Shown: piece after piece, positions 11,423-30,359 of the stretch
How the letters are laid out: each line of letters opens with the position of its first letter
How positions within the stretch are numbered: position 1 is the first letter of the stretch
Assembly: GCA_964291655.2 (NCBI GenBank)
Contig: OZ219801.1
Span: 384,001 to 448,000 of the forward strand
Source: Chloroflexota bacterium
Lineage (GTDB): Bacteria > Chloroflexota > UBA11872 > VXOZ01
Direction of reading: 5' to 3'
Length of the DNA stretch: 64,000 nucleotides
Translations under genes and position numbers: made by a program
The notes under the pieces: model-generated
The model's input: the letters and a program-made list of their open reading frames with translations, nothing else
Database searches by the model: none
What the model was told of the DNA's origin: nothing

Positions 11423-11652
11423 CCGAAGACGCTCTAGGTGTTCGCGAGCAATTCTCGCAGCAAAAAGAAACTAGCCCGCTCTTGCGCTTTGTTAGACATG
11501 AGGTTTGGCATTAATCGAGAGCAACCGCAACAAGATCCCACGATCGGGAGCTCCAAGAGCTAATCCATAGACTGGTTTAGGGAACAAGAACAGAAAACAT
11601 TAGCCGCATTCCCATTTGAAACAAGAAATCCTGGTAGGAGGAGCAAGGGACT

Positions 11653-13002: not shown

Positions 13003-13159
13003 CCGGGATGCCCTGCAACTAAGCACCTGAGTCTTTCGCTCATCTTTGGAATACACGTGTGGGTGATTTGAGCGCATTTGTCTTGTGGCCTTCCTCCAAG
13101 TTGGTAGAGACCTTGAGTCCTGAACAGGCCCTTAACCGTCAACCCTGTAAGGTATTTGC

Positions 13160-13420
13160 ATGTCTTTCCTGATTCCGTGTCCCAACTGCGGCAAGCGCAG
13201 CGTCTACGAGTTTCGCTTTGGCGGTGAGGTGAAGTCCCGGCCGGAAGCGGGTTCGAGCGACGAGGCGTGGCTGGGCTATAGTTACGCCACAGGTAACTCC
13301 GAGCGCTCTCAGAAGGAATGGTGGTTCCACACCTACGGCTGCCGCCAGTGGCTCTTTGCCGTGCGCGACACGCTGACGAACGAGGTGACGGGGACGAGTC
13401 TGCCCGAGGAGGAACTGTGA
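13160..13420 (+). CDS. soxD: Sarcosine oxidase / N-methylglutamate dehydrogenase delta subunit
   Basis: CPNCGKR..EF.FGGE, EWWFHTYGCRQW..RDTLTNEV zinc-site motif. Confidence 0.9.
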   Translation: MSFLIPCPNCGKRSVYEFRFGGEVKSRPEAGSSDEAWLGYSYATGNSERSQKEWWFHTYGCRQWLFAVRDTLTNEVTGTSLPEEEL

Positions 13421-16191
13421 GCCGCAATTCTGAATCTCGTCATTCCGGCGAAAGCGGGAATACATCTTCGGCCGCCTCGGATCGTAACGGACATTCCGCC
13501 GTGACTTTCCACTTCGATGGCAAGCCCATCGAAGCCCATCCACAAGATACGGTAGCTTCTGCACTTTACCGTTCCGGACAGCGCATCTTCAGCCGCAGTT
13601 TCAAGTACCATCGCCCGCGCGGCCTGCTGTGCGTTTCGGGTAGGTGTCCCAACTGCATGATAAACGTGGACGGCACGCCCAACGTGCGCGCGTGCACGCA
13701 GCCGGTCCAAGACGGCATGCAGATCACCCACCAGAATGCCTATCCTTCCTTAGAGTCCGACTTCATGGCCGTTGCCGAACGGTTTGCCTGGGCCATGCCC
13801 GTAGGGTTCTATTACAAGACCTTTACGCATCCCTGGATGTGGCACCTTGCAGAACCGCTTATTCGCCGCGCCGCAGGCTTGGGCAAGATTGACCGCGACC
13901 CAAAATCGGATGCCGAACACCCGTATGAGCACGTATTCCTGCATACCGCGACCGCCGTAGTTGGCGGGGGGCCCTTCGGATTGCGGGCTGCCCTTGACGT
14001 GGCAGAGCGGGGCGAAGAAGTGGTTCTGATCGACGATCAGCCGGAGTTGGGCGGTCACACACGCTATACGGGCTCCGGCAACGACAATTCGAGCGCAGTC
14101 TCATTCCCGGAAACCTCATCCGGTGGCCAATCCACTGATGAACTCTCAGCGCTGGTGAAGCGTGTGCATGAGCATCCCAAAGTCACCATCTTCACCGACG
14201 CCACCTGCTTCGGAATCTATGAAGACAATCTGCTGGGTATCGTGCATCAGGGTCCTGGATCCCCGGTAGCCCAGCGTCTCACGCAACTGCGTACTGAACG
14301 CATCGTCGTCGCCACGGGCGCCCATGAAATCCCGTTGTTGTTCGAGAATAACGATGTGCCCGGTGTCATGCTCAGTAGCGGCGTCCAACGCCTCATCGGC
14401 CTGCATGGAGTGAAGCCGGGCGAACGTGCCGTAGTGGTTGGCACGGCAGAAGCAGCGGGATCAGTAAGCGGCGCGCTAGAGGCTGCGGGTACTGCGATTG
14501 TAGGGACTGTCCCCTTGGACCAAGTTGTCAAAGCCGTCGGTCGTAAGCATGTCTCAGGTCTTCAGACTTCCGAGCAGCTACTCGCGTGCGATCTCGTCGT
14601 CATGTGCGGCGATTGGGTGCCGGACGCAGGCCTCGTCGCCCAGGCTGGCGGCAACGTGGCGTGGGATGATGAGCGGGCCGTTTTCGTTACAAGTGACTTG
14701 CCGGATGGTGTCACAGCAGTGGGAGCAGTGACCGGTGAAACGCTGCCTCCTGCTACAACCCTCTTCCAGAATTCCGATTCGAACCCTAAAAAGACATTCG
14801 TTTGCCCCTGTGAGGACGTTTCGCTTCATGACCTGCGTACAGCTATCGATGAAGGCTTCGATCACATCGAAACGCTCAAGCGGTACACCACTACCACGAT
14901 GGGGCCCTGCCAAGGCAAGATGTGTCACCAAGCCGCCATCGGGATCTGCGCGCAGCAGACCGGGCAGACAATACAAGAAACCGGCAGAACAACATCGCGG
15001 CCACCGACATCTCCCGTACCGCTCGGAGCGCTGGCCGGGCCCCACTTACATCCGGTCAAGCGCACACCCATGCATGTCAAGCACGACGAACTCGGCTGTG
15101 TCTGGATGGACATGGGCGAGTGGAAACGTCCGCTCTACTACGGTACGCCGGATAGCAAAAAGGAATCCGTGGAACAAGAGTACTGGGCGGTACGCCAGCG
15201 CGTCGGTCTAATCGACTTGAGCACCCTCGGCAAACTCGACGTCATCGGCCCAGACGCCGGCAAGCTCCTGGACAAGGTCTACACCAATCGCTTTTCCGAT
15301 CTGCGTGTAGGTCGCGCCCGCTACGGCGTTATCTGTGATGAGGCGGGCATTATCCTGGACGACGGCACCGTCTCCCGCCTTGGCGAAGACCATTATTTCA
15401 TTACCACCACCACCGGCAATATCGAGTTCGTGGAGGAGTGGCTGGAGTGGTGGCTCGCAGGCTCCGGCATGTGCGTGCACGTCACGAATGTCACCGGCGG
15501 CATGGGCGCCGTAAACGTGGCCGGTCCCAAGGCCCGTGAAACGCTCGCCAAGCTTACCGACCGGGACCTCAGCAACAAGCGCTTTGGCTACATGCGCTGC
15601 CGCAAAGCCGATGTAGCGGGTGTACCCAGTCTCATGTTGCGCATCGGTTTCGTCGGCGAGACTGGATGGGAGATTCACTTTCCCGCGGAATACGGCGAGC
15701 ACATCTGGGATGCCATCATGGAAACCGGCGCGGAGTTCGATATCCTGCCCTTTGGCGTGGAAACACAACGCGTGCTTCGCCTCGAAAAGAAACACGTGAT
15801 CGTCAGCGTCGATACCGACGCCACGAGCAACCCCATCGAGTCTGACCTGGCCTGGGTAGCAAAACTTGATAAAGAAGACTTCATAGGCAAAGCAGCCATC
15901 AGCCGCGCGAAGGACCGTGCCCCGCGGGAAAGGCTTGTGGGGTTTGTTATGGATGAGAATGTGCTGCCGCCGGACGGTTGCGTGATCATTGCCGACGGTC
16001 AGCCGGCGGGGCGCATCACGAGCGTGCGCTATTCACCGGTGAATGAGAGGATCATAGGCTTGGCCTGGGTTGCCGCAAGCCTTGCGGTCGCCGACCAGAC
16101 AATAGAAGTGCGTGTCGACGGCCGCCCGGTAACGGCCAAGATTAAAGACGAACCATTTTACGATCCCGCGCAGGCGCGACTCCGCCAGTAA
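13417..16191 (+). CDS. soxA: Sarcosine oxidase / N-methylglutamate dehydrogenase alpha subunit (Fe-S, NAD-binding and GcvT-like folate domains)
   Basis: SRSFKYHRPRG, GFYYKTF, VVGGGP.G, CPCEDV...KRYTTTTMGPCQGK, DLSTLGK, RIGFVGETGWE; GTG 13417 overlaps soxD stop, RBS GAGGAGG. Confidence 0.9.
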   Translation: MSRNSESRHSGESGNTSSAASDRNGHSAVTFHFDGKPIEAHPQDTVASALYRSGQRIFSRSFKYHRPRGLLCVSGRCPNCMINVDGTPNVRACTQPVQDGMQITHQNAYPSLESDFMAVAERFAWAMPVGFYYKTFTHPWMWHLAEPLIRRAAGLGKIDRDPKSDAEHPYEHVFLHTATAVVGGGPFGLRAALDVAERGEEVVLIDDQPELGGHTRYTGSGNDNSSAVSFPETSSGGQSTDELSALVKRVHEHPKVTIFTDATCFGIYEDNLLGIVHQGPGSPVAQRLTQLRTERIVVATGAHEIPLLFENNDVPGVMLSSGVQRLIGLHGVKPGERAVVVGTAEAAGSVSGALEAAGTAIVGTVPLDQVVKAVGRKHVSGLQTSEQLLACDLVVMCGDWVPDAGLVAQAGGNVAWDDERAVFVTSDLPDGVTAVGAVTGETLPPATTLFQNSDSNPKKTFVCPCEDVSLHDLRTAIDEGFDHIETLKRYTTTTMGPCQGKMCHQAAIGICAQQTGQTIQETGRTTSRPPTSPVPLGALAGPHLHPVKRTPMHVKHDELGCVWMDMGEWKRPLYYGTPDSKKESVEQEYWAVRQRVGLIDLSTLGKLDVIGPDAGKLLDKVYTNRFSDLRVGRARYGVICDEAGIILDDGTVSRLGEDHYFITTTTGNIEFVEEWLEWWLAGSGMCVHVTNVTGGMGAVNVAGPKARETLAKLTDRDLSNKRFGYMRCRKADVAGVPSLMLRIGFVGETGWEIHFPAEYGEHIWDAIMETGAEFDILPFGVETQRVLRLEKKHVIVSVDTDATSNPIESDLAWVAKLDKEDFIGKAAISRAKDRAPRERLVGFVMDENVLPPDGCVIIADGQPAGRITSVRYSPVNERIIGLAWVAASLAVADQTIEVRVDGRPVTAKIKDEPFYDPAQARLRQ
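13438..13463 (+). repeat. REP-like palindrome CGTCATTCCGGCGAAAGCGGGAATAC inside the soxA 5' end
   Basis: Same family as intergenic copies at 18186-18212 and 19641-19668. Confidence 0.65.
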
Positions 16192-16199
16192 GAGAATCA

Positions 16200-16874
16200 A
16201 TGGAATCACCACTTCGACAATCTCCGCTCCACCATGTTGCCTCCGAATTGGGCGCGACATTTAGCTCCCACCACGGTTGGAACATAGCGACGCAATTCGC
16301 AACGCCGGACGCGGAAGTTGCGGCCCTCAAGAGCGGTGTCGGCATGGCGGACGCGAGTTGGCTGGGCAAGCTGGAACTCAAGGGTCGCCAGCAAGAGTTG
16401 GAATCCATCACAATTGACGCAGGCAAGACATGGCGTCTGGCGCGAGGGCACTACTTTATTGCCTGTGATCCGATGAGCGGAGACGCAGTCATCGAGTCGA
16501 TAGAACGACAGGTTGCAGAGCGAGAAAGCACAGACCCGGCGTGGGCAGGCTGCGTTCACGTGGTAGACGTGACCTCCACCCTTGCGGGCATCCTACTCGC
16601 GGGCCCCCATAGCCGCGACGTGTTGCAGCGGCTGACTGCACCCGATGTTTCCGACTCCGCCTTTGCTAATGGAGCCTGCCTTAGCGCCAAAGTCGCCGGT
16701 CTGCACGCGCGGCTTGTGCGGGACGATCTTGACGCAACGCTGGCCTATGGGCTCTTTGTCGGCACCGAGTACGCCGCCTACGCCTGGGAAGCAATCATGC
16801 ACGCCGGGCATCAGTTCGGCATAGTGCCGGTAGGCCATGAGGCCGCGCAACGCATGCGGGGTGCCAAACCATGA
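16200..16874 (+). CDS. soxG: Sarcosine oxidase / NMG dehydrogenase gamma subunit (GcvT-like)
   Basis: RQSPLH, HVVDVTS...LAGPHSRDVL, YAAYAWEAI; position within the cluster. Confidence 0.8.
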   Translation: MESPLRQSPLHHVASELGATFSSHHGWNIATQFATPDAEVAALKSGVGMADASWLGKLELKGRQQELESITIDAGKTWRLARGHYFIACDPMSGDAVIESIERQVAERESTDPAWAGCVHVVDVTSTLAGILLAGPHSRDVLQRLTAPDVSDSAFANGACLSAKVAGLHARLVRDDLDATLAYGLFVGTEYAAYAWEAIMHAGHQFGIVPVGHEAAQRMRGAKP

Positions 16875-18136
16875 TCCAATTGTTTCGCAAGGAGCGCATG
16901 TGGCGCGCGCATGAACTCAAAAAAAGCTATGACGTCGTCATCATCGGCGCGGGCGTGCACGGTCTGGCTACAGCGTACTACCTGGGCAAGGACCACGGCA
17001 TCACCAACGTAGCTGTCCTGGAAAAGCGCTATCTCGGCGCCGGCAATTCCGGGCGCAACACTGCCATCATCCGTGCAAACTACCGCACGCCGGAAGGCGT
17101 CCCCTTCTTCGCCCGCTCGCTTCAACTGTATGAAGACCTGTCGCGCGAGCTTGAGTGGAACCTGCTTTTCAACCAATGCGGTCATCTGACCCTGGCCCAC
17201 ACGGATTCATCCGTGGACGGGCTGCGCGTGCGTGCCGAGACCAACCAGATCATGGGCGTGGACAGCCGCGTCATCTATCCGGAAGAAATTCAGAAGCTCG
17301 TCCCCGCGCTCGACATGAGCGACCGACCGCGCTTACCCGTGATGGCGGCGCTCTATCACCCGCCGGGCGGCATCATTCGTCATGACGCCGTGGTGTGGGG
17401 CTACGCGCGAGCGTGCGACCGCATGGGCATCGAGATTCACCCATTCACTGAGGCGACGAGCATTGGCATTGACGGCTCAACCGCGAGTGACCACGCCAAT
17501 GAACCCCAGCACCTCGGTACGCCGGAGGGCAAAATAACTAGCGTTGAGACTACCAATGGGAGCATTGCCACAGGCACCGTGATAAATTGCGCTGCCGGTT
17601 GGGCCACAGTGGTCTCTCGGATGGCCGGTGTTCCCCTGCCCATCGTGACTCAACCTTTGCAGGCCTGTGTCACAGAGCCGCTCAAGCCATTCCTCGACAA
17701 GGTGATAGTCTCGGCCAATCTGCACGTGTACGTCAGTCAAACCGACCGAGGCGATTGCGTCATGGGAGCAGAGGTTGATCCACTTCAGTCCTACAGCATG
17801 CAGGGCACGCTCCCTACGTTGGAACAAATGGCCACCTACACCTTGGAGCTCTTTCCACAATTGCACAGTGTGAGCGTCCTGCGGCAATGGGCCGGAATCT
17901 GCGATATGACTCCCGACTTTTCGCCCATCATCGGCGGAGTCGAAGGCTTGGAAGGCTATCATCTGGACGTGGGCTGGGGTACGTACGGGTTTAAGGCCGG
18001 CCCTGTTGCCGGGAAATACCTGGCGGAACTCATCGCAACAGGTCAGACGCCCGAGCTGATCGAGCCATTCCGGCTCTCGCGCTTCCGTGAAGAGGCGCTG
18101 GTCGGTGAAAAAGCCGCAGCGGCAGTTTCGCATTAG
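16871..18136 (+). CDS. soxB: Sarcosine oxidase / NMG dehydrogenase beta subunit (FAD)
   Basis: LKKSYDVVIIGAGVHGLATAYYL, GNSGRNTAIIRANY, RHDAVVWGYAR, GWGTYGFKA, C-terminal AAAVSH. Confidence 0.92.
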   Translation: MIQLFRKERMWRAHELKKSYDVVIIGAGVHGLATAYYLGKDHGITNVAVLEKRYLGAGNSGRNTAIIRANYRTPEGVPFFARSLQLYEDLSRELEWNLLFNQCGHLTLAHTDSSVDGLRVRAETNQIMGVDSRVIYPEEIQKLVPALDMSDRPRLPVMAALYHPPGGIIRHDAVVWGYARACDRMGIEIHPFTEATSIGIDGSTASDHANEPQHLGTPEGKITSVETTNGSIATGTVINCAAGWATVVSRMAGVPLPIVTQPLQACVTEPLKPFLDKVIVSANLHVYVSQTDRGDCVMGAEVDPLQSYSMQGTLPTLEQMATYTLELFPQLHSVSVLRQWAGICDMTPDFSPIIGGVEGLEGYHLDVGWGTYGFKAGPVAGKYLAELIATGQTPELIEPFRLSRFREEALVGEKAAAAVSH

Positions 18137-18185
18137 CACGTGCGCTACTTGTGTATCATGTAGACACAGATCAACGAACACAGCC

Positions 18186-18212
18186 CGTCATTCCGGCTTT
18201 CGCCAGTATCCA
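18186..18212 (+). repeat. REP-like palindrome (GTCATTCC family), degenerate
   Basis: CGTCATTCCGGCTTTCGCCAGTATCCA in the soxB-gmaS intergenic region. Confidence 0.55.
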
Positions 18213-18288
18213 GCGATGGGTGGGGATTAGACTGGTTACTGTATCAGCAACTCTTGGAAACGGTAATTGCACGTAAGGAGGCACACCC

Positions 18289-19623
18289 ATGACAATCGAC
18301 GAGGTCAAATCTCTGATTGCAGAGCGCGGCATCAAGTTCTTTCTCTGCTCGTACGTGGAGATGAGCGGCGCGCCTAAAGCAAAATTGATCCCGGCTACGC
18401 ACATCGATGACATGGCGGACGGCAGCGCCGGCTTCGCCGGCTTCGCTGCCGGCGACATGGGGCAGAGTCCCCACGATCCCGACATGCTCTGTCATCCTGA
18501 TTTCAATTCGACACTTGTCCTGCCGTGGCGGCCGGACATCGCCTGGGTATCGGGCAACATCCACGTCAACGACGTGCCTTGGCATTACGGGCCCCGCTCG
18601 ATCCTAGAGCAGCAGTTAGCGAAAGCGGAGCAGGCGGGCTATCTCATGAACGTGGGCACTGAAGCCGAGTTCATGCTGCTCAAGCAAGACGAGCACGGCG
18701 GCTATGCTCCCTGGGACGCGCTCGATACGCTCGACAAGCCCTGCTATGACGTGCGCGCTTTGTACCGGAACCTTGACGTCATCACGACCCTGGTTGGTCA
18801 TATGCAAGACCTGGGCTGGGAGCCCTATGCTTCCGACCATGAAGACGCTACTTGCCAGTTTGAACTCAACTGGCTCTACTCCGACGCAATGACCACCGCA
18901 GACCGCCACACCTTCTTCCGCTGGATGGTTAAGACGGTCGCCGAGGAAAACAGCCTGACCGCCACGTTCATGCCGAAGCCGTTCCAAGACCTCACCGGCA
19001 ACGGCGCGCACTGCCACGTGAGTCTCTGGGATAACGACAACACGACGAACCTCTTCCTGGATGAAGACGACGAAAACGGCCTTTCGCAGCTTGCGTATTG
19101 GTTCACCGGCGGCGTCCTACACCATGCCCGCGCGCTTACGGCGGTGACCTGTCCCATCGTAAACAGCTACAAGCGCCTAATCCGCGGCCAGCCGCGCTCC
19201 GGCGCTACCTGGGCGCCGGTGTACGGCACCTACGGCGGCTCCAACCGTACCCAGATGATCCGCATCCCCGATCCGGGACGTATCGAAAACCGCATCGTGG
19301 ACGGCGCGACCAATCCCTATCTTGCGTACACGGTATTGCTCGCCGCCGGCCTCGACGGCATTGCCAACAAGATTGATCCCGGCGTGCGCAACGACGACAA
19401 TCTCTACGAGCTTTCGGAAGAGGAACTTCACCGCCGCGGCATTACGTTCCTGCCCACCAGCCTCCCCGAGGCGCTTGACGAACTCGACAAGGACGACGTG
19501 ATCAAAGAGGCGCTGGGCCGCGAGTACGCCGATTACTTCATCGCGGTCAAGCGCGATGAATGGAACCGCTACCACCTCAGCGTGAGCCAGTGGGAATTGG
19601 ATAACTACATCGGCGTGTTCTAG
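18289..19623 (+). CDS. gmaS: Gamma-glutamylmethylamide synthetase (GlnT-type glutamine synthetase family)
   Basis: AKLIPA...GFAGFA, KPCYD, DHEDA.CQFE.NW, FMPKPF..TGNG.H, SGATWAP, NRTQMIRIP are GlnT/GmaS signatures; adjacent to mgs and mgd genes. Confidence 0.85.
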   Translation: MTIDEVKSLIAERGIKFFLCSYVEMSGAPKAKLIPATHIDDMADGSAGFAGFAAGDMGQSPHDPDMLCHPDFNSTLVLPWRPDIAWVSGNIHVNDVPWHYGPRSILEQQLAKAEQAGYLMNVGTEAEFMLLKQDEHGGYAPWDALDTLDKPCYDVRALYRNLDVITTLVGHMQDLGWEPYASDHEDATCQFELNWLYSDAMTTADRHTFFRWMVKTVAEENSLTATFMPKPFQDLTGNGAHCHVSLWDNDNTTNLFLDEDDENGLSQLAYWFTGGVLHHARALTAVTCPIVNSYKRLIRGQPRSGATWAPVYGTYGGSNRTQMIRIPDPGRIENRIVDGATNPYLAYTVLLAAGLDGIANKIDPGVRNDDNLYELSEEELHRRGITFLPTSLPEALDELDKDDVIKEALGREYADYFIAVKRDEWNRYHLSVSQWELDNYIGVF

Positions 19624-20080: not shown

Positions 20081-21241
20081 ATGGCGCGATTCCACGATTC
20101 AGATTCCGGCATTACATTGGACAACGAGTTTGAGTGTGCTAGTGCGCGGGAGTTTAGCAGGATCGGTCCCGGGCACTACCAAGTTGAGTTGCTCATCGAG
20201 AACTATAGCCCAGACTACCCGGTGGTGTGGGAGTACATGTTCTGCTTCCGGGTGCGGTCGCAGTCAGACCAAGCGCAAACGGTTACCTTTCGCGTCATGA
20301 AGGGGCGGGGCGGCATCAGCTACCTGGATGGGCCGCACTTTGCCAAACGCAACGGCAAGTGGGGCCTCGTGCCCCGTTCCCAAACGCACATGACACAGGA
20401 TTACGTCGAGGTCACCCTCGAAGTTGCTGCAGGCGACGAATTCTTACTCGGCAATCATCCGTTTCCCACACCGGCGGAGGTGGAATCCGCGATGCATGCC
20501 ACTGCCGCTGCGCTGGACGATTTCTCCGTGCGCGAATTCGGACGGACGCCGGAAGACCGCCCGCTCTTGGCGCTGGAATCCCAGCCCCGCGACAAGACCG
20601 TCATAGTCTTCGACACGATGCAACCGGCCGAACCCGGCGACGTGCCGATGCTCTTCCTCGCCCACTGGCTGAGCAGTCGCTCCGCCGAGGCGGAAAGGCT
20701 CTTGGAGGAATACCAGTTTTGCCTCATGCCCTTGACGAACCCGGACGGCACGGCCCACGGACACTCGGTGACGAATGCGGCCGGGGAAGTGCCGCGCTGC
20801 CACTTTGAGGACGCCAAATTGGGCAAACCGGTCCCCGCTGAGGCCGCCACGACTTGGGAATACTTAGCGGAAAAGAAACCCACGGCGTTTATCGAATTCC
20901 ACATCCATTACCTCGTACACGCCCCGCACAAGCTGGTAGGCGTCACCGTCAATGAACCCTCGGATGAACGCGGCGTCGTAGCCTTGCCTGCGGCCACTGT
21001 GCTCTGGGGCGAGCTCCTAAAGCTCAACAGCAACTGGCGGGCGCGCCTCATCGAGGCCGAGAGCGAAACCTTTCGCAATGCCCTTGACGGCACGTTGGCG
21101 CGAGACTTCGGCACTTTGGCTTATGTCTATCAGATCTACGCCCCAACTGTTGAAGCCGCCTGCGCCCATGCCGTGGACGTGGTACGGGCGACGGTCAACG
21201 GAGTGCAGGCCGCCGCCGCACTCGATCTACAAAACGCTTGA
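20081..21241 (+). CDS. M14 zinc carboxypeptidase-family protein with non-canonical active-site residues
   Basis: N-terminal DNEFECAS domain, FGRTPEDRPL, MPLTNPDG, IEFH; HxxE site reads QPAE; RBS GGAGG. Confidence 0.7.
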   Translation: MARFHDSDSGITLDNEFECASAREFSRIGPGHYQVELLIENYSPDYPVVWEYMFCFRVRSQSDQAQTVTFRVMKGRGGISYLDGPHFAKRNGKWGLVPRSQTHMTQDYVEVTLEVAAGDEFLLGNHPFPTPAEVESAMHATAAALDDFSVREFGRTPEDRPLLALESQPRDKTVIVFDTMQPAEPGDVPMLFLAHWLSSRSAEAERLLEEYQFCLMPLTNPDGTAHGHSVTNAAGEVPRCHFEDAKLGKPVPAEAATTWEYLAEKKPTAFIEFHIHYLVHAPHKLVGVTVNEPSDERGVVALPAATVLWGELLKLNSNWRARLIEAESETFRNALDGTLARDFGTLAYVYQIYAPTVEAACAHAVDVVRATVNGVQAAAALDLQNA

Positions 21242-21495
21242 ACCGGCCTCCCAAGAAAACTCACAGTATTGGGTTGCTTTTCAGCTAATATGTCTAGACA
21301 GGTACGGCTACCTGGTGTAACCTACAGACACGCGGTGATTGACACTAAAGTGAGTAGGGAACACGGCGGCGGCACCGCATCTCTTGATCAAAGTACTTCC
21401 GCACAATCTGAATGGAGGCGCTAAAGACGGCAGCATCGCACCGTATTCCCTGTGCCCGGTTGCAACAGTGGAACGATAGAGAAAGGACGAGAGGA

Positions 21496-22926
21496 ATGGC
21501 AATTCACAATCGTCATCTCACACGGAGAAGCGTCCTCGCCGGCATCGGCAGCTCAATAGGCGTCTTGGCAGTCGCCGCGTGCGCGCAAGGAACAGCAACG
21601 CAGATGCCTGCCGAAGAGTCTGAGGAGGAGGCCAAGCAGGCTGAAGAAGCACCAGTGATGGAAACAGTATCGGTGCGCGCCGGTTGGATTTCCAACGATG
21701 CCTCAGTAATCGAGCCCTTCTACGGCGATCTGCTTGTCGCCAGCTTCGAAGCGGCGCATCCCAACATCAAGGTGGCGTGGGAAGGCGCGCCCGCCAGAGA
21801 GCACCATGCCAAGCTCGCGACCCAGTTGGCGGCCAACGAAGCGCCGGATGTCTTCCACAGTGACGGCGTTCGCTACGCGCTCTTCCGCGACTCCGGGTAC
21901 ATCAACGACCTCGCACCCTATTTGCAGCGCGACGCCGGGGCACTGCAAGGCGTGATCGGCCCGGAATTTTTCCGCGATCCCGACGGCAGCACATGGGGTA
22001 TCTCCAGCAGTATCGGCGGCGTCGCCACGGCCTACAACACCGCCCACTTCGATAAGTTCGGCGTCAACCGCCTGCCTGAAGGAGGAATCAATTGGAATCC
22101 GACCGATGGCGGTGAGTTCTTAGAAATAGCGCAAGAGCTCACCCAGCGCGGCAGCACCGAGGCGGACCCGGTCTGGGGCTTCTTCAACAACAAGCAAATC
22201 ACCGGCGACGTGCTGAGCCTGCTCGTGCAGAACGGCACGAATTTCCTCAGCGATGACTACCGCCGCTCGCGCATCCATGAACCGGAATTCATGGAAGTTG
22301 TGGAATTCCTGCACAACCTGGAATTCAAGTGGCAGGTATCCCCAAATCCCGAGCACGTCGCGCTGCTGCTGGAGGCCATACCAGAAGGGCAGACCTATCA
22401 CGCGCCGTTCGCGTTCCAACGGACGGCAATGATGAACCTGCTCATGGGTCAGTCCGGCCGTTGGGGCGGTCCCGATCCGGAGAGCTTGCCGGTGGTGGCC
22501 GTGAAGTTCCTGAGCGGTCCCCAGAACGACAAGGTGCCAAGCGGAGGCCGGGTCATGGAGCATTGGGGCAGTTCACAACAGCCCGATGAAGCATGGGACC
22601 TCATGCGCTTCTTCCTGACAGACCACGAGGTGAACATTGCGACCTTCACCATTCTCAAGTCCGGTCTGCCGCCCAACACGAACTTCTGGGACGACGAACG
22701 GCTCTATGTGAAATCGGGCAGACCGCCGCGTGAAATCGAGGCCTACATGGCCACACTGCGCGAAGGCAAGGGCTACTACTGGCAGGTGAACGGCGTCTGG
22801 AGCGCCTGGATCGGCGCTTACCGCACCGGTCAGGGTGCGATCTGGGCCGGCGAAGCCACAGTGGAGGAAGCGATGCAACAAGCCAGCAAGGAGGCGCAAG
22901 CGGCGCTGGACGAGTATTACGGCTAG
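21496..22926 (+). CDS. ABC transporter extracellular solute-binding lipoprotein (paralog of 24826-26268)
   Basis: LTRRSVL Tat-like signal, VAAC lipobox, APDVFH, AYNT; ATG 21496 after GAGAGGA. Confidence 0.88.
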   Translation: MAIHNRHLTRRSVLAGIGSSIGVLAVAACAQGTATQMPAEESEEEAKQAEEAPVMETVSVRAGWISNDASVIEPFYGDLLVASFEAAHPNIKVAWEGAPAREHHAKLATQLAANEAPDVFHSDGVRYALFRDSGYINDLAPYLQRDAGALQGVIGPEFFRDPDGSTWGISSSIGGVATAYNTAHFDKFGVNRLPEGGINWNPTDGGEFLEIAQELTQRGSTEADPVWGFFNNKQITGDVLSLLVQNGTNFLSDDYRRSRIHEPEFMEVVEFLHNLEFKWQVSPNPEHVALLLEAIPEGQTYHAPFAFQRTAMMNLLMGQSGRWGGPDPESLPVVAVKFLSGPQNDKVPSGGRVMEHWGSSQQPDEAWDLMRFFLTDHEVNIATFTILKSGLPPNTNFWDDERLYVKSGRPPREIEAYMATLREGKGYYWQVNGVWSAWIGAYRTGQGAIWAGEATVEEAMQQASKEAQAALDEYYG

Positions 22927-23084: not shown

Positions 23085-24488
23085 CTAAATCGGCACTTTC
23101 TGTGCCATTGCCGCCAATCGTACATCCGCCTGCAAGCAGAGCCTACGCTCTTGCCGCTGCCGCTCGGAGAGTTGGCCCCGAGGATCGCAGACGACCACTA
23201 GGCTGTCCTTACCTTCCGGTATTCGGAAGGGCACCTCACACACCGCTTCCTCGCGTCCGATTACTGTCGGCACTAGTGCATGTCCCAGTTGCATGCCGCC
23301 GCCCTCGTCAATCGGCCCATCAAAGACCATCAGTGCCACGTCGTGTGCGTCAATCACCCCTCTGTTCACCACAGTTACCTGTACACGACCGATCTCTCGA
23401 TTTAACTCAGCTACCTCCACCGCTGCAAGTTCCAGGTCGCATTCCACGCGGTCGACTGACACAGCCGCATAGGCATCGATAAGGCCGTGGCCCATAAACG
23501 GATTCCAGCCGCTGCCACCGGCCGGCTGCTTCGCGGTGTTGCGTATTACCATCCTGACCTGCTCGGCCGTAAGGCCGGGATGTCGCGACCATACGAGCCC
23601 CGCGAGGCCGGAGACATGTCCTATTGCCATGCAGCCGCCCGACCACTCCACGTAGCCGCCGTGCTCACCGGTAATCGTACTAAGAACGCCGTATTCCGCT
23701 TGGGGATGAGCACCCAGCGCGGCTGCCATAACGCATTCTTCCGCCAGCGGCAAAATGCGCCGCGAGGGATCATTCGCAAGGTCGTAGTCACGCCAGCCGG
23801 ACGGCGCCGCGACCTCCGTGAGGTCGCCGTAGTCGCTAAAGTCTGCCATGCGGCCGCTCTTGTCCGCGGAAGCCACATTGACTACACCCGGGCAGAGCGC
23901 GGGATACTTGGCGACATTGTGGGCCTGATTGCCGCCGGTAGCATTGATTATGAGCACATTGTGCTGCTGGGCATACCGGCAGGCCTCCAGCAGTTCCTCC
24001 GAATGCGGCGGAGTCCAGGCGCTGTAGATCGTGGGCAGGCCGTGCTTGGTAGTGTACATGTAGCCCACGTCGCTCAAATTGATGACCCGCGCGCCGTTGT
24101 CCACGGCAAATCGGATCCCGCGCGCGAGCTCGCCATCGTGGTAGGTATTGACCCGCACGGGGAGAATACGGCACTCCGGCGCGACCCCGGCAATGCCGAT
24201 GCCGTTGTCTGCGCGCGCGGCAATTATGCCGCAAATGTGGGTGCCGTGATCAGTAGAGTCCTTGTGTTTGCGCGGTCGCGAGGTGTCGTCCAGGCTATCG
24301 TCATCCTCCCACAAGTCCCATCCCGGCAGAATCTGGCCCTCCAGGTCGGGATGCCCGACATCGATTCCTTTCTCGATGACAGCCACCACCACGTCCGGGC
24401 TGCCGCGCGTTGTTTCCCAGGCGTCAGGGGCCCTCATGAGCTGCAATCCCCATTGCTGTGCAAACAGTGGGTCATTAACTGGAACCAT
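23085..24488 (-). CDS. S8 subtilisin-family protein with Glu-His-Cys triad and C-terminal CARDB-like Ig domain; no signal or propeptide
   Basis: NDPLFAQQWGL, VAVIEKGID, HGTHICGIIAA.ADNGIGIAGVAP, INLS, GGN, YPA, FSDYG, SGGCMAIGHVSGLAGL, GHGLIDAYAAV. Confidence 0.88.
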   Translation of the reverse strand: MVPVNDPLFAQQWGLQLMRAPDAWETTRGSPDVVVAVIEKGIDVGHPDLEGQILPGWDLWEDDDSLDDTSRPRKHKDSTDHGTHICGIIAARADNGIGIAGVAPECRILPVRVNTYHDGELARGIRFAVDNGARVINLSDVGYMYTTKHGLPTIYSAWTPPHSEELLEACRYAQQHNVLIINATGGNQAHNVAKYPALCPGVVNVASADKSGRMADFSDYGDLTEVAAPSGWRDYDLANDPSRRILPLAEECVMAAALGAHPQAEYGVLSTITGEHGGYVEWSGGCMAIGHVSGLAGLVWSRHPGLTAEQVRMVIRNTAKQPAGGSGWNPFMGHGLIDAYAAVSVDRVECDLELAAVEVAELNREIGRVQVTVVNRGVIDAHDVALMVFDGPIDEGGGMQLGHALVPTVIGREEAVCEVPFRIPEGKDSLVVVCDPRGQLSERQRQERRLCLQADVRLAAMAQKVPI

Positions 24489-24825: not shown

Positions 24826-26268
24826 ATGTCATTTGCACAAAGTCGCATTACGCGTCGGCGCATGCTTGCCGGTACTGGCGGCGTTCTTGGCGCGATCGCG
24901 CTGGCAGCGTGCGGCACCGCCATGCCGGCCGATTCCGGCGAAATGCCGGAGAAGGCTGCGGAGGAGACCAAGGCCGAAGAACCGGCACCAGCAGAGAAGG
25001 TCACGGTTTCGGTTAGGTGGATCTCCAACGACCTTACTCGCGTTGAGCCATTCTACGAGAATCTCGTTGTGGCGCGATTCTACGAGAACTACGACAACAT
25101 CGAGCTTGATTGGGTAGGCGACACCTACCGCGACACCATGAGCCAGCTCAATACGCAGTTGGCCGCCGGTGACGCTCCGGACGTATTCCACAACGACGGC
25201 GTCTTCTTCGCTCGCAACCGTGATGCAGGGTTTGCTCGGGCGATCACCGAGTATGTCCAGCGCGATTCTGCTCAGCTCCAGGGGGTCCGCGGTCCCGAAT
25301 TCTTTACTGACGAGAAGCAGGATGTCTACGGCGTCTCCATGGGTGTCGGTGGCGCAGCGCTTGCCTACAATACCGACCATTTCGATCGCTACGGCATCAA
25401 TCGCTTGCCCGCCGAAGGCATAGACTGGAACCCGGATGACGGCGGCACGCTGCTGGAGATCGCTTCAGAAATTACGGGCCGTGGCGAAAACGAAGATCCC
25501 AGGGTGTGGGGTTGGTTCAACAATAAGCAGGCCACTTTCGACATTCTGGGGATGCTGCTGCAGAACGGCACGAATTTCCTCTCCGATGACTACCGCCGTT
25601 CCCGCGCGCACGAACCGGAATTCATTTCGGTTATTCAATTCCTGTGGGACTTGGAATTCAAGAATCGTGTTGCACCGGATCCCGACGACGTCGCGGAATT
25701 CAATGCTTCCGTACCTGAAGGAACAACGTACCACGGACCCTTTGCCTGGCAGCGGTCGGCCATGATGAATCTCGGCCTTGGCCAGTCCGGTTCCTGGGGT
25801 TCGCCGGATCCAGATAGTCTTCCCATTGTCGCCGTGGAGTACATCCATGGCCCGGCAAACAACAAGGTACCTGGCGGTGGACGTGTGGTGGAAATGTGGG
25901 GCAGCACTGAAGTGCCCGACGAGGCCTGGGAAGTGATGAAGTTCCCCTTGATCGACCACGAAGTTCAGGTGGGAGTCTTCACGATTCTCCGTGACGGCCT
26001 GCCGGCCAATACCAACACCTGGGATGACGCTCGCCTGCTCGAGAAGAGCGGTCGACCGCCGCGTGAGGTGGAAGCGTACATGGCGCCCCTCAGAGAGGGC
26101 CGCGGCCAATACTGGCAAGTCAATGGCGTGTGGCTGGAGTGGTGGCGCGCATTCCGTGGCAATATGAACCGCGCGTGGGCCCAAGAGGTCACCGTCGAGG
26201 AAGCCATGCAGACGGCAAGCAAGGAATCACAGGTTGTGCTGGACGAGTACTACGCAAACCAAGAGTAG
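24826..26268 (+). CDS. ABC transporter extracellular solute-binding lipoprotein (paralog of 21496-22926)
   Basis: ITRRRML signal, LAAC lipobox; shares long blocks (QNGTNFLSDDYRRSR, KSGRPPRE.EAYMA, YWQVNGVW) with the upstream paralog. Confidence 0.88.
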   Translation: MSFAQSRITRRRMLAGTGGVLGAIALAACGTAMPADSGEMPEKAAEETKAEEPAPAEKVTVSVRWISNDLTRVEPFYENLVVARFYENYDNIELDWVGDTYRDTMSQLNTQLAAGDAPDVFHNDGVFFARNRDAGFARAITEYVQRDSAQLQGVRGPEFFTDEKQDVYGVSMGVGGAALAYNTDHFDRYGINRLPAEGIDWNPDDGGTLLEIASEITGRGENEDPRVWGWFNNKQATFDILGMLLQNGTNFLSDDYRRSRAHEPEFISVIQFLWDLEFKNRVAPDPDDVAEFNASVPEGTTYHGPFAWQRSAMMNLGLGQSGSWGSPDPDSLPIVAVEYIHGPANNKVPGGGRVVEMWGSTEVPDEAWEVMKFPLIDHEVQVGVFTILRDGLPANTNTWDDARLLEKSGRPPREVEAYMAPLREGRGQYWQVNGVWLEWWRAFRGNMNRAWAQEVTVEEAMQTASKESQVVLDEYYANQE

Positions 26269-26701: not shown

Positions 26702-27415
26702 ATGACACCGCTCCTCACCGCCCTCGTCGCCTTTGGCGCCGGCATTGCCTCATTCCTCTCACCGTGCGTACTGCCGCTTGTACCGGCCTACATTGGTCAT
26801 TTGGCGGGAACGAGTGTGTCTGAGGAGCAGGACGCCCAAGCAACGATGCGCACCGTCGCCCACGCGGCCTTTTTCGTACTCGGCTTTTCTACCATCTTTG
26901 TGCTGCTTTGGACACTCATCGGCCTGGTAGGCTGGGCAATTCAGGGGTACACTTTCTATCTGCGTTACATCGGAGGCGTGATTCTTGTCGTTTTCGGGCT
27001 GCACGTTGCCGGAGTCTTTCGCGTGCGCTGGCTCAACCAGGAGCGCCGAGTCTACGTGGACCGCAGCCGCCCGCGCAGCTATCTTACTTCGTGGCTTGTC
27101 GGCCTTACATTTGCCGCAGGCTGGACGCCCTGCATCGGCCCCATCCTCGCCGGCATAATTGCCCTGGCGACGACACGGGAGACGGTGGGGCAAGGCTCAT
27201 TGCTCCTGGCACTCTACTCAGCCGGACTTGGCATCCCGTTCTTGCTTACCGCGGTCGGACTCTCCCGCGCGGTGCCCGCCATTCGCTGGATGAATCGGCA
27301 CGGCCATACCGTGGAGGTGGTCAGCGGCGGCTTCCTGATCGTGGTGGGCGTAATGCTGTTTACAAACACGTTCGCCCTTCTCAATGCCTACTTTGCGTGG
27401 ATCCCAGTTTTCTAG
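26702..27415 (+). CDS. ccdA: Cytochrome c biogenesis protein CcdA (DsbD transmembrane domain)
   Basis: SFLSPCVLPLVPAYI and FAAGWTPCIGPIL motifs; several TM helices. Confidence 0.92.
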   Translation: MTPLLTALVAFGAGIASFLSPCVLPLVPAYIGHLAGTSVSEEQDAQATMRTVAHAAFFVLGFSTIFVLLWTLIGLVGWAIQGYTFYLRYIGGVILVVFGLHVAGVFRVRWLNQERRVYVDRSRPRSYLTSWLVGLTFAAGWTPCIGPILAGIIALATTRETVGQGSLLLALYSAGLGIPFLLTAVGLSRAVPAIRWMNRHGHTVEVVSGGFLIVVGVMLFTNTFALLNAYFAWIPVF

Positions 27416-27575: not shown

Positions 27576-30359
27576 TCAAGGCATGCGATACACCTCAGCC
27601 GCCGGTTTTACCGGGCGTGGAATCCACAGCGGCCGGCGCAACGCATTCGTACCTTCTGCGGGGCGGGTCTTCTTCATCCACTCCAGGTACACTTGGTGAG
27701 ACCTATCAGTATCCACAAAGACATCGCCGTATTGATCGTCGGCGCCTGCCGTTTCGACGCACACCTTCTGGTGCCAGCAGTGCATGCCGCTCACCGGGTC
27801 CGGGTGCACCGGGAAGGTCATATTCTGATGCACGCCGGAATCTTTCCACCAGACGCGGTCTGAATCCGGGTCCGGGCTTTTGAATGGCCTCACGCCTTCA
27901 ATTTGCCGCATGAACCACTGCCCGTCCTTTACCTGCTTCAAGTCCACGTGGGCGGTCGACCAGCGCTCGCCGCCGCTCTCCTTCGAGAGTCGCCAGCGCC
28001 CCAGGTGGTGTGAACATGCCACAATCCCGGGACGTATGCCTTCCGTGACCCAGACACGTATGACGAAGTAGCCCACTTCCGTACTTACCCTGGCAAGATC
28101 GCCGGTTTCAAACACAAGCCGTTCGGCGTCCTTTGGGTGCACCCAGAGCGGATTGGTATGCGAAATCTCATACAGCCACTTGGCATTTCCCGCCCGCGTA
28201 TGGATGAGTGTCGGCAGACGGAACGTGGGCAACAGGACGTATTCACCCTTGCCGTGGTCGATGTTATCTCGATGCACATGACTCCTGATGTAGGTCGGCA
28301 CGGCGTATTCCGACCACTTGAACTCGCGCATTGTATCGGAGAAGAACTCCAGCTTGCGGGAAGGCGTATGGAACCCTTCAACCGCCGTGCCATCCACCTC
28401 TACTCCAAGCACTTCGCCGTTCTTCCGCACCTGGTGGGTAACGGGATCAATCTCTGCCCCGTCGAGCTGCTCGGCGGTCAGCGGGTTTTCATGCACAGCA
28501 TAGGTGTCCCGCTTCACTTCGAATGCGCCGTACTTGCGCATATACGCGAGGGGCGCAAGCTCCTCTTTCTCCGCAGCCTCCGGCAGTCCCGGTACACTAT
28601 TCTCGAATATCCACTGGTAGTACTCGCTTATCGTCAGCTTTTCACCGGGCCGGTATGGGGACTCGAAGAATTCCCGCACGCCCAAGCTGCCATCGGGGTC
28701 GATGCGCCAGGAGAGCTCAATCCAGAACTCATCCTCTTCCCACACCTCACCGGGATTGGCTTCGTAGGTGAACTCGACGGCATCGCCGTTCTTTTCACGC
28801 GCCACCCGCAGCACCGGTTGGCGGAAACCGATCCAAGCCCCGGCTTGCGTCTCTTGGCTCATGAGATCGTGGCGCTCGGCGCCGTTGCCCATGGGCAACA
28901 CGTAGTCCGCAAACCAGGCCGTCTCGCTCCACACCGGCGTCAACGCGGCATGGACACCCACCTTATCCTCGTCACTCAGCATTTCGATCCACGAGGCCCC
29001 ATCGGGATTAGTCCACACCGGGTTATAGACCCGCGTGAAGTAAGTATCTACCTTGCCGCGTCCTTCTTTAAGAAAGTGCGGCAACAGAATGCTCATCTCA
29101 TGGTGCGCCAGCGGAAATTCCTTCGGCCACAAAAGCTCGCTCCATACCTGCTGCGGCGGGGGTTTGATGTAGGGCGCGGGCGCGAACTTATTCCAACTAT
29201 TCGGCGACGTGCCGCCGCGCGTGCCGATGCTCCCCGTCAACACGCCGAGAAAGGTCAGGCAGCGGGAGACTTGCCAGCCGCCTTCATTGCCGGAGGCCGC
29301 ACTGCGCCACACATGGCTGGCAAAAGCGGTGCCCGCCGCGGCGATCTCGCGCGCCACCGCAACGATCTGGCTGGCGTCTACTCCACTCTCCTGCTCGGCA
29401 AACTCCGGTGTGTACGAGGCATAGAACTCTTTGATGGCGGCAATAAAATTGTCGAATGTTGCATCCACGTCAGGATGCTCAGTGCGCATGTACTCGTGCC
29501 AATTCAGCCACTTCTCCATGAAGTCGCGGTTGTAACGGTCTTCCTGCAAGATGATGTTTGCCATGGCAAGCAGCATTGCCGCCTCAGAACCCGGCCATGA
29601 CGACAGCCAGTAGTCTGCCCGCGAGGCAGTATTTGAAAGCCGCGTATCGATGACGGCAATCTTGGCCCCAGAGAGCTTGCCCTCAATGATCCGCTGGGCA
29701 TGGGGATTGAAGTAGTGCCCCGTTTCCAGGTGAGCGCTGATTAGCAGCATGAACCGCGAATTGGCGTGATCGGGCGAGGGTCGGTCCGCGCCCTGCCAGA
29801 GCGTGTATCCCAGACGCGCGCCTGACGAGCAGACGTTGGTATGGCTGTTATGTCCGTCCACGCCCCAGGCCTGGAGCACGCGGTCCATGTAGCCGTCGTG
29901 TCCGGGACGACCCACGTGATACATAACCTCAGTGCGCCGGTCTTCCTGTAGTGCGCGTCGAATGCGCGCTGCGAGCGAATCGAGCACTTCATCCCACGTG
30001 GTCCGTTCCCACTCGCCGGAGCCGCGGGGCCCGGTGCGCTTCATGGGGTAGAGTATGCGCTCCGGATCATGCACCTGGTTGATAGTCGCCGGGCCTTTCG
30101 CGCAGTTACGGCCGCGACTGCCGGGATGCGCCGGATTGCCCTCGAACTTGCGAATGCGCATGTCTTCTTTGTCGATGTACGCCAGCAGGCCGCACGCGGA
30201 CTCGCAGTTAAAGCATACGGTTGGGACCAGCATGTAGTTCTTCGGGACTTTCTGGGGCCAGGCTTCCGGGTCGTATTCAGTCCAGTCGTCCCACTGCTCT
30301 ACCGGAGGGTAGTTCGCAAGCTGGCCTGACTCGGGAAACTGTGGTTTGAAAACCGACAT
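27576..30359 (-). CDS. Molybdopterin (bis-MGD) oxidoreductase catalytic subunit, Psr/Ttr/Arr-like lineage, no Tat signal
   Basis: CFNCESACG...NCAKG FS0 cluster, HNSHTNVCSS putative Mo-Cys ligand, ETAWFADYVLP, C-terminal molydop-binding domain. Confidence 0.88.
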   Translation of the reverse strand: MSVFKPQFPESGQLANYPPVEQWDDWTEYDPEAWPQKVPKNYMLVPTVCFNCESACGLLAYIDKEDMRIRKFEGNPAHPGSRGRNCAKGPATINQVHDPERILYPMKRTGPRGSGEWERTTWDEVLDSLAARIRRALQEDRRTEVMYHVGRPGHDGYMDRVLQAWGVDGHNSHTNVCSSGARLGYTLWQGADRPSPDHANSRFMLLISAHLETGHYFNPHAQRIIEGKLSGAKIAVIDTRLSNTASRADYWLSSWPGSEAAMLLAMANIILQEDRYNRDFMEKWLNWHEYMRTEHPDVDATFDNFIAAIKEFYASYTPEFAEQESGVDASQIVAVAREIAAAGTAFASHVWRSAASGNEGGWQVSRCLTFLGVLTGSIGTRGGTSPNSWNKFAPAPYIKPPPQQVWSELLWPKEFPLAHHEMSILLPHFLKEGRGKVDTYFTRVYNPVWTNPDGASWIEMLSDEDKVGVHAALTPVWSETAWFADYVLPMGNGAERHDLMSQETQAGAWIGFRQPVLRVAREKNGDAVEFTYEANPGEVWEEDEFWIELSWRIDPDGSLGVREFFESPYRPGEKLTISEYYQWIFENSVPGLPEAAEKEELAPLAYMRKYGAFEVKRDTYAVHENPLTAEQLDGAEIDPVTHQVRKNGEVLGVEVDGTAVEGFHTPSRKLEFFSDTMREFKWSEYAVPTYIRSHVHRDNIDHGKGEYVLLPTFRLPTLIHTRAGNAKWLYEISHTNPLWVHPKDAERLVFETGDLARVSTEVGYFVIRVWVTEGIRPGIVACSHHLGRWRLSKESGGERWSTAHVDLKQVKDGQWFMRQIEGVRPFKSPDPDSDRVWWKDSGVHQNMTFPVHPDPVSGMHCWHQKVCVETAGADDQYGDVFVDTDRSHQVYLEWMKKTRPAEGTNALRRPLWIPRPVKPAAEVYRMP

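Follow-up and report, generated by a model that had tools for sequence, protein, structure and literature searches.

The window analysed here is the whole 64,000-nucleotide stretch of contig OZ219801.1 from a Chloroflexota bacterium, and the element in question is a single minus-strand gene at 23085-24488 that encodes a leaderless protein with the fold of the S8 peptidases (subtilases) and a Glu-His-Cys triad. The features of this gene are listed below, with the evidence for each in parentheses; AF2 is AlphaFold2, ORF is open reading frame and pLDDT is the predicted local distance difference test score.

23085-24488, minus strand: whole gene, 467-aa leaderless S8-fold protein with a Glu-His-Cys triad (ORF, Pfam, thermitase alignment, AF2 model, Foldseek)
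23085-23087, minus strand: stop codon
23454-24488, minus strand: subtilase catalytic domain, residues 1-345 (PF00082 over residues 32-335 and thermitase alignment over residues 5-343)
23088-23453, minus strand: C-terminal all-beta domain (beta-sandwich) of ~120 aa (DSSP strands at residues 352-457, alignments)
24372-24374, minus strand: Glu39, codon GAG, catalytic Asp32 column, in VAVIEKG (thermitase alignment, direct DNA reading)
24246-24248, minus strand: His81, codon CAC, catalytic His64 column, in DHGTH (translation, family counts)
23928-23930, minus strand: Asn187, codon AAT, oxyanion-hole Asn155 column, in GGN (translation, family counts)
23634-23636, minus strand: Gly285, codon GGC, Thr220 column (family counts)
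23631-23633, minus strand: Cys286, codon TGC, nucleophile Ser221 column, in SGGCMAIGH (thermitase alignment, DNA reading)
23619-23621, minus strand: Gly290, codon GGA, Pro225 column, a derived state of one subclade (DNA reading, family counts)
23994-24071, minus strand: insertion 1, approximately residues 140-165 (gap opposite thermitase and ordinary S8 proteins; pLDDT 74-76)
23691-23795, minus strand: insertion 2, approximately residues 232-266, after AAPSGW, with a helix at 251-257 (alignment, AF2 model)

The minus-strand DNA across the nucleophile motif, tgg tcg ggc ggc tgc atg gca ata gga cat, translates as WSGGCMAIGH, and selenocysteine at position 286 was ruled out because the codon is TGC and not TGA. 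HMMER aligned the protein to thermitase (1tec) with VVVAVIEKG over KIAIVDTG and SGGCMAIGH over SGTSMATPH, which places Glu39 in the column of the catalytic Asp and Cys286 in that of the catalytic Ser. The oxyanion-hole Asn of S8 enzymes is kept (Asn187, equivalent to Asn155 of BPN'). The protein is therefore an S8 member by fold and homology that lacks the Asp-His-Ser triad of the S8 serine peptidases, and it carries both residues that characterise subtiligase, namely Cys at 221 and a small residue, Gly290, at 225. An initial annotation, made from the letters of the window alone, had described this ORF as an S8 subtilase with Glu39-His81-Cys286 and Asn187, and had placed the TGC codon at 23633-23631, GGA at 23621-23619 and GAG at 24374-24372; direct reading and alignment bore out all of these assignments.

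The 467-aa ORF lies within a 494-aa open frame that has no internal stops. Its ATG at 24488 is the earliest ATG, GTG or TTG downstream of the in-frame stop and is preceded by AAGGA 8 nt to its 5' side. The N-terminus reads MVPVNDP, and residue 5 pairs with residue 4 of mature thermitase, which leaves no space for a leader of either kind; judged by the start site, the upstream frame and this alignment, the protein has neither a signal peptide nor an I9-type propeptide, as had been proposed at the outset. Pfam PF00082 (Peptidase_S8) matched residues 32-335 (E = 9.4e-44; 150.3 bits against a cut-off of 21.8), and the closest sequence match in the PDB was thermitase (E = 2.9e-35), with alignments spanning residues 5-343. 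The Pfam scan returned PF00082 alone and thus no match for the C-terminal domain; in the alignments this beta domain, with its NRGV.D motif, is common to the entire group of Cys-type proteins described below. Insertion 1 directly follows the NLS strand, which lines the substrate cleft in subtilisins, and both insertions are poorly conserved (4% and 3% of positions invariant in insertions 1 and 2, respectively). An AF2 model built from a 74-sequence input had a mean pLDDT of 93.1 and a predicted template-modelling score of 0.93, with pLDDT of 97-99 in the blocks around the four catalytic residues, and Foldseek superposed it on thermitase (1thm) with a TM score of 0.91 (normalised to the target) and a root-mean-square deviation of 2.4 A.

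Conservation was assessed in a set of 285 proteins (P0001-P0285), consisting of the query and the matches from homology searches, each search being represented by its best 120-150 matches. A search of 5.8 billion proteins yielded a compact clade (P0002-P0028; 98-42% identity, 442-476 aa), beyond which there was a sharp fall to ordinary S8 proteins at ~35% identity, and three more distant members at 38-41% identity (P0122, P0123 and P0124) came from an exhaustive HMMER search across 1.84 billion representatives. We refer to this Glu-His-Cys family of the window protein as clade A and to its Asp-His-Cys sister family as clade B. Cys occupied the nucleophile column in 34 of the 285 proteins, all of them within the wider family of the window protein. 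Where Cys-type sequences covered the column in question, the acid was Glu in 29 of 30 (Asp only in P0127), the His was present in 30 of 30 and the oxyanion Asn in 32 of 32, against Asp at the acid column in all 238 Ser-type sequences. All 29 full-length clade A members examined retained the Glu, His, Asn and Cys, down to 38% identity, and these four residues were among the 54 of 467 positions that were invariant in 11 diverse members of the clade.

The gene also recurs in other genomes and is under strong constraint. Of 98 genomes surveyed in the class, 17 carry it, including 14 of the 16 others that share the genus and 2 of the 5 that represent one genus from another family, and it is present in 15 further loci of Chloroflexota metagenome-assembled genomes. 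The ratio of nonsynonymous to synonymous substitution rates (dN/dS) was 0.066-0.107 between the window gene and 11 orthologues (L002-L012) and 0.077 for the comparison with L015, at dS values of 0.74-1.48. The nucleophile codon was TGC in all 18 genes compared, while synonymous variation among orthologues was seen at the codons for the Glu (GAG/GAA), the Asn (AAT/AAC), Gly284 and Gly285. Contigs from four runs of four studies cover the gene, and none of the 40 contig differences listed (of 110) fell in the Glu39, Cys286 or Gly290 codons. An artefact, meaning a sequencing or assembly error or a recently decaying serine protease gene, is a practically negligible explanation, because the same codons recur in 18 genes from different assemblies, the gene is carried by contigs from runs of four studies, purifying selection is strong and the frame is intact without stops. 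The changes Ser to Cys, Asp to Glu and Thr to Gly are thus selected, and are the product of neither decay nor sequencing error. That the substitutions were selected had been the initial proposal, and dN/dS, synonymous codon turnover and the four catalytic residues in 29 of 29 members agree with it; neither sequencing errors nor Asp and Ser in all close homologues, either of which would have spoken for the opposite, turned up in the family and contig comparison. Two depth spikes, at 24072-24118 and 24166-24212, are not features of the gene: conserved S8 motifs there are matched by short fragments belonging to other contigs.

The genome holds one other S8 homologue (G000:C2:859927-861264, minus strand; locus L017:907-2247), a 446-aa protein that reads VAVIDLG, GHH, ADN and EGGCMASAF at the successive motifs and thus has Asp-His-Asn-Cys. 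This paralogue represents clade B, which comprised 150 clusters at E <= 1e-20 among 8000 candidates scored, from sources with names that include Armatimonadetes, Verrucomicrobiota, Kiritimatiellae, Isosphaeraceae and Anaerolineae. The Cys of GGCM was present in 120 of 120 clade B members (the best 120 of the 150 clusters). A conserved HH stands at the His motif; for this motif the multiple sequence alignment was used, since pairwise alignments misplace the His in some clade B sequences. Within the phylum, clade B was found in 13 of 401 sampled genomes, in the same two genera as clade A.

A 51-row phylogeny, obtained by quick search and rooted at the midpoint, set the 29 Cys-superfamily rows (11 from clade A, 14 from clade B and 4 intermediates) apart from the 22 ordinary S8 rows with a support of 100 in the Shimodaira-Hasegawa-like approximate likelihood ratio test (SH-aLRT); support was 99 for clade A and 100 for clade B, and with the midpoint root the Cys state requires just two changes. 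The intermediates vary at the catalytic columns: P0127 has Asp-His-Cys with Pro225, P0194 is a fragment with Cys, P0133 has Asp-His-Ser, and in P0164 Gly fills the nucleophile column while the Cys stands one residue away. The Cys-type superfamily is delimited by a GGC nucleophile motif, by leaderless proteins of 440-480 aa that end in the beta domain, and by monophyly relative to ordinary S8 proteins; these are traits for which, by the tree, motif counts and alignments, the window protein qualifies throughout. Consistent with absence of a leader, the conserved QQW motif lies near the N-terminus in clade A, where its median start is 10 residues in (23 of 29 sequences have it), against 110 in the outgroups (5 of 16), and a leader is lacking in all the Cys-type families. 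The window protein thus belongs to an old, uncharacterised and strongly supported superfamily of leaderless Cys-type S8 proteins. With a root that is not established, the simplest history would be one old change of Ser to Cys together with Thr220 to Gly, followed by Asp to Glu in clade A and by repeated changes of Pro225 to Gly or Ala.

Among the second-shell positions, the Thr220 column was the most distinctive: it held Gly in 153 of 154 Cys-type sequences, whereas in Ser-type sequences it held Thr in 231 of 238 and Gly in 1 of 238. By these counts the Cys goes most closely with Thr220 to Gly. The position that follows the acid holds Thr or Ser in 224 of 238 Ser-type sequences and becomes variable in the Cys-type. 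Position 225 was less uniform: of the 34 Cys-type sequences among the 285 proteins, 20 have Pro, 9 have Gly and 5 have Ala. In the 18 genes compared, the 225 codon was GGA or GGG in the window gene and in L001-L004, L009 and L019, CCN in 10 and GCG in L014; Gly225 is confined to one subclade of the window's genus (CCN to GGR), with Ala in other branches. Gly290 is thus a recent state of one subclade and not a conserved trait of clade A. The initial annotation had taken S>C, P>G, T>G and D>E as one coordinated set and had proposed a check of whether E39, C286 and G290 co-occur across genomes. The first, third and fourth of these changes do hold across the family, and E39 does accompany C286, but G290 accompanies them in only the 9 sequences with Gly, Pro being retained in 20 of 34.

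In clade B, by contrast, Pro never stands at position 225 in the best 120 of the 150 clusters, of which 104 carry Gly there, 10 Ala, 5 Ser and 1 Glu. For the engineered counterparts, the available text of one report (PMC7921005) states that S221C thiol-subtilisin forms a thioester that favours aminolysis, at the cost of drastically reduced activity and poor amidase function, that P225A restores activity through relief of crowding at the larger sulfur, that 14 of 20 variants in a 225X library, Gly included, outperformed 225P, and that small residues at 225 increase the ratio of synthesis to hydrolysis. In the available part of a second report, screens largely preserved P225A, with Gly as the sole other residue tolerated (PMC9126251). 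By the sequence counts, clade B shows in nature the 225 pattern that thiol-subtilisin engineering selected, and the window subclade arrived at Gly independently. The parallel to thiol-subtilisin and subtiligase drawn in the initial annotation is accordingly apt, and is stronger in clade B (Gly, Ala or Ser in 119 of 120) than in the protein for which it was proposed.

The surroundings of the window gene include the following features.

20081-21241, plus strand: M14-like gene with QxxE instead of the HxxE zinc motif (Pfam M14, E = 1e-6), two genes from the window gene
21412-22926 and 24826-26268, plus strand: two paralogous family-1 solute-binding proteins of ~500 aa that flank the window gene

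The first zinc-ligand motif of the M14-like protein reads TMQPAE, and that of a homologue beside a clade B gene in L069 reads SLQSAE; a gene of this QxxE subtype adjoins the clade B gene in two metagenome loci, L068 and L069, whereas the M14-like genes of L013 and L037 keep HxxE. M14-like genes lie 1.9-4.5 kb from the clade A gene in the window, L013 and L037. The motif may mean that the window M14-like protein is a pseudo-carboxypeptidase or that its metal site has changed, and the gene for this protein is a possible, if weakly indicated, functional partner of the Cys-type S8 gene. The N-terminal sequence RRSVLAGIG of the solute-binding protein encoded at 21412-22926 is twin-arginine-like; in the window, the two solute-binding-protein genes are adjoined by neither permease nor ATPase genes, and throughout the genus the Cys-type gene keeps its place between two such genes, again with no permease next to them. 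NCBIfam gave no name for either solute-binding protein, for the M14-like protein or for the CE4-like protein.

Other Cys-type genes lie among genes for hydrolases and oxidoreductases. In L014 an M24/creatinase-like gene lies 63 bp upstream of the clade A gene on the same strand, with an Amidohydro_2 gene also near; in L013 GFO/IDH/MocA oxidoreductases stand on both sides of the clade A gene, together with DegT and an M14-like gene 3.5 kb off; and in L037 the neighbours are M14-like, Amidohydro_2, SDR and GH38 genes. The paralogue in the window's own genome is flanked by M24, CE4-like, MR_MLE, APH and DUF3604 genes. In G045, a CN_hydrolase gene lies directly downstream of the clade B gene, with the clade A gene ~14 kb away and an ABC importer in the same island. 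The full island (G045:C1:1446000-1468000, loci L089 and L014) contains CN_hydrolase, DUF3604, DAO, PhyH, GFO/IDH/MocA, ABC importer, M24, Amidohydro_2 and sulfotransferase genes and both Cys-type S8 genes.

Among 109 ORFs within 6 kb of clade B genes in metagenome loci, the most frequent Pfam assignments were URO-D-like and Polysacc_deac_1 (9 each), followed by DegT (4), GFO/IDH/MocA (4), DUF3604 (4) and MR_MLE (3), and a gene of the CE4/URO-D-like cluster was directly adjacent to the clade B gene in 10 of 33 distinct loci. URO-D/MtaA-like proteins adjoin clade B genes in L077, L059, L063 and L067, loci from different metagenome records, and group by BLAST with the CE4-like (Polysacc_deac_1) neighbours of other loci; the one of these four that was scanned, from L077, scored below the NCBIfam cut-off. 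A role in salvage of peptidoglycan fragments or D-amino-acid peptides is only a lead, drawn from neighbours that, going by distant relatives, we take to be an MpaA-like M14 protein, a dipeptide-epimerase-like MR_MLE protein, a CE4 deacetylase, an APH kinase and one M55 D-aminopeptidase.

Elsewhere in the window, a plus-strand run at 9813-19623 encodes GATase_6, GXGXG, Glu_synthase, a SoxA-like/GCV_T fusion, a small GCV_T protein, a DAO/SoxB-like protein and a type III glutamine-synthetase-like protein, the last of which matched TIGR03105 above cut-off (599.7 bits). In its gene content this run matches the N-methylglutamate pathway, by which methylamine is used (mgsABC, the mgd genes and gmaS). 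The genes from the SoxA-like to the glutamine-synthetase-like one are syntenic in the genus, and the first three had no match in those loci. On the other side, a 237-aa ORF at 26702-27415 (plus strand) and a 927-aa ORF at 27576-30359 (minus strand) are both syntenic across the genus and bear the provisional, unconfirmed labels CcdA-like and molybdopterin-oxidoreductase-like, respectively, given from sequence alone. A small fraction (0.24-0.27) of words is shared with two runs labelled sponge metagenome, from which we make no habitat claim.

With slightly better than even confidence, we read the window protein as a cytoplasmic thiol-dependent hydrolase (an amidase or peptidase) that would work through a thioester acyl-enzyme and is encoded in catabolic gene islands. 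Its most likely substrates are imported nitrogen-containing organic compounds, which it would process alongside the C-N hydrolases encoded nearby; an amidase or peptidase acting on such compounds is favoured because the neighbourhoods are catabolic and rich in C-N hydrolases. The analysis directly shows the residues with their conservation and selection, the fold, the lack of a leader, the superfamily and the gene neighbourhoods; catalysis, thioester chemistry, cytoplasmic location and substrate class are points that we infer. In the proposed mechanism, Glu39 would orient His81, which would form a thiolate-imidazolium pair with Cys286; Cys286 would then attack an amide or ester carbonyl, the side chain of Asn187 and the backbone NH of Cys286 would hold the oxyanion, and the resulting thioester acyl-enzyme would be resolved mainly by water. 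Gly285, in place of Thr220, would give space for the larger sulfur, as would a small residue at 290 in some lineages. A reducing cytoplasm would suit the thiol nucleophile of leaderless proteins.

Several observations weigh against this hydrolase proposal. Relative to thermitase, the loop that matches subtilisin 99-104 is shortened, and 26 residues are inserted after the NLS strand, so that canonical binding of extended peptides may be lost; the alignment hints at a remodelled non-prime side and at substrates that may be small. The engineered thiol-subtilisin is a poor amidase in the available text of PMC7921005, and amide hydrolysis is thus no given; Pro225, said to crowd the sulfur, is retained by most of clade A (20 of 34). 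The change of Asp to Glu lengthens the acid side chain, leaving its contact with His81 putative. Among the intermediates, the Ser of P0133 and the displaced Cys of P0164 depart from the expected nucleophile. The window gene, moreover, is monocistronic between two oppositely oriented solute-binding-protein genes, with synteny only within the genus, and because the four independent clade A contexts differ from each other, the association from which the substrate class is drawn is a weak one.

Neither the nucleophile nor the acid matches the S8 consensus, and the protein could alternatively be a non-catalytic pseudoenzyme, in which the subtilase fold would serve as a binding or scaffold protein and the Cys and Glu would be tolerated without chemistry, as in Clostridioides difficile Csp. 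The remodelled substrate-cleft loops and the relative P0164, which has no Cys at the nucleophile column, fit such a protein, and S8 pseudoproteases are known (PMC7200643, in the part available). Catalytic positions of pseudoenzymes usually drift, yet here the Glu, His, Asn and Cys are invariant over 38-98% identity while 413 of 467 positions vary; the replacements are chemically competent, the Asn155 equivalent and the coupled Gly220 are also fixed, and dN/dS is ~0.08. We therefore regard loss of catalysis as unlikely. Distinctly unlikely, in our estimate, is a natural transacylase, peptide ligase or transpeptidase, in which an amine would resolve the thioester and the enzyme would join or cyclise peptides or transfer acyl groups in the cytoplasm. 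Cys286 and Gly290 occupy the same two positions as in subtiligase, Gly, Ala or Ser stands at 225 in 119 of the 120 clade B members listed, and thioesters favour aminolysis, with small 225 residues raising the ratio of synthesis to hydrolysis (available text of PMC7921005). Pro, however, stands at 225 in most of clade A, and subtiligase requires activated ester donors, none of which is evident here. In the neighbourhoods examined, moreover, we saw no genes for precursor peptides, for ribosomally synthesised and post-translationally modified peptides, for ATP-grasp enzymes or for carrier proteins; the neighbours are catabolic hydrolases, oxidoreductases and importers.

A metal site is very improbable. 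Glu39, His81 and Cys286 would then bind a metal, as part of a metallo-hydrolase or a metal or redox sensor on the subtilase scaffold; all three are classical zinc ligands in general coordination chemistry, and the longer Glu carboxylate could reach a shared centre. In subtilases, however, the His ring has the acid on one side and the nucleophile on the other, an arrangement ill suited to a shared metal centre; clade B keeps Asp, and the oxyanion Asn is conserved although a metal mechanism has no need of it. We retain the thiol-dependent hydrolase as the preferred reading.

To our knowledge, subtilases are a textbook serine-only protease clan. The conversion of the subtilisin Ser to Cys has been a classic experiment of enzymology since the 1960s and is the basis of commercial peptide ligases. 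Public annotation names the Cys-type proteins 'S8 family serine peptidase', a name that is probably wrong about their chemistry. No NCBIfam model scored above cut-off for the window protein or for three clade B and intermediate proteins, and in a PDB profile search the natural matches were all Ser-type, accompanied by engineered variants, with no solved structure from the natural Cys-type family. Full-text literature searching, of incomplete coverage and thus compatible with an earlier description, found no paper on a natural cysteine-nucleophile subtilase. The initial statement that no characterised natural example was known accordingly holds for the literature, PDB and NCBIfam, although the protein is no singleton and has many uncharacterised natural relatives; of that interpretation as a whole, the selected natural thiol-subtilisin-like proteins stand, whereas the role given to Gly290 and the supposed uniqueness do not.

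What the comparison delineates is a large natural family under purifying selection that combines Ser to Cys with Thr220 to Gly, often with Pro225 to Gly or Ala, and with Asp32 to Glu in one branch. The boldest proposal, which we offer as a long shot, is that over 150 clusters are natural thiol-subtilisins, a distinct cysteine catalytic type, and that some of them, above all the forms with Gly or Ala at 225, may be transacylases or ligases. If that were true, evolution would have found the subtiligase solution (S221C with a small 225 residue, plus Thr220 to Gly) long before engineers did, and a clan so far serine-only would become mixed, with a new catalytic type on the subtilisin fold. The family would show which second-shell changes nature uses to accommodate a thiol on the subtilisin scaffold, would offer cytoplasmically folding, propeptide-free scaffolds for the engineering of ligases and thiol-hydrolases, and would be of high interest to enzymologists and protein engineers.

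Compared with known systems, the window protein shares with thermitase and subtilisin BPN' the fold, the order of the catalytic motifs, His64 and the oxyanion Asn155, at ~30% identity, and differs from them in having Cys for Ser, Glu for Asp, Gly for Thr220, no leader, two insertions, a 99-104 loop that is shorter and a beta domain added at the C-terminus; thermitase and BPN' belong to MEROPS family S8, subfamily S8A. The intracellular subtilisin proteases (ISPs) of Bacillus (2x8j and 2wv7, PDB sequence matches at E = 2e-19) are likewise cytoplasmic S8 proteins without a signal peptide or classical prodomain. ISPs carry a short inhibitory N-terminal extension, which the window protein lacks, and have an Asp-His-Ser triad. 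The mycosin model TIGR03921 was the top NCBIfam match of the window protein, but a role in type VII secretion was rejected, as the score of 213.3 bits is below the cut-off of 278.75, there is neither a signal peptide nor a C-terminal membrane anchor (the maximum 19-residue hydropathy in clade A is 1.61), and the nucleophile is Cys and not Ser. Proteases of the picornain 3C type have a chymotrypsin fold with a Cys-His-Glu/Asp triad and demonstrate that a Cys-His-Glu triad can be catalytically competent. They are alike in having a natural Cys nucleophile on a serine-protease fold, with Glu as the acid in some members, and unlike in belonging to clan PA and not SB, in processing viral polyproteins and in having no homology to subtilases.

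In the available text of PMC7200643, the Csp pseudoproteases CspA and CspC also combine an S8 fold with non-canonical catalytic residues; they are non-catalytic signalling proteins with incompetent replacements, in contrast to the competent and invariant set of the window family. Protease-effector modules of defence systems were considered and rejected as a parallel, since in the available part of that report (bioRxiv 10.1101/2025.11.14.688446) the S8 proteins are serine-type and sensor-fused and the cysteine proteases are caspase-like. A family-B profile ranked engineered BPN' variants (7am3-7am8) over the wild type in the PDB; calcium-loop-deleted variants such as 1gns ranked just as high, and we claim nothing from this order. 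With the engineered series of thiol-subtilisin, subtiligase, peptiligase and omniligase (S221C with or without P225A/G/N), the window protein shares Cys at 221 and a small residue, Gly, at 225. Most of its clade keeps Pro225, and the window protein itself is natural and under selection, combines the Cys with Asp32 to Glu and Thr220 to Gly, is leaderless and carries a C-terminal domain.

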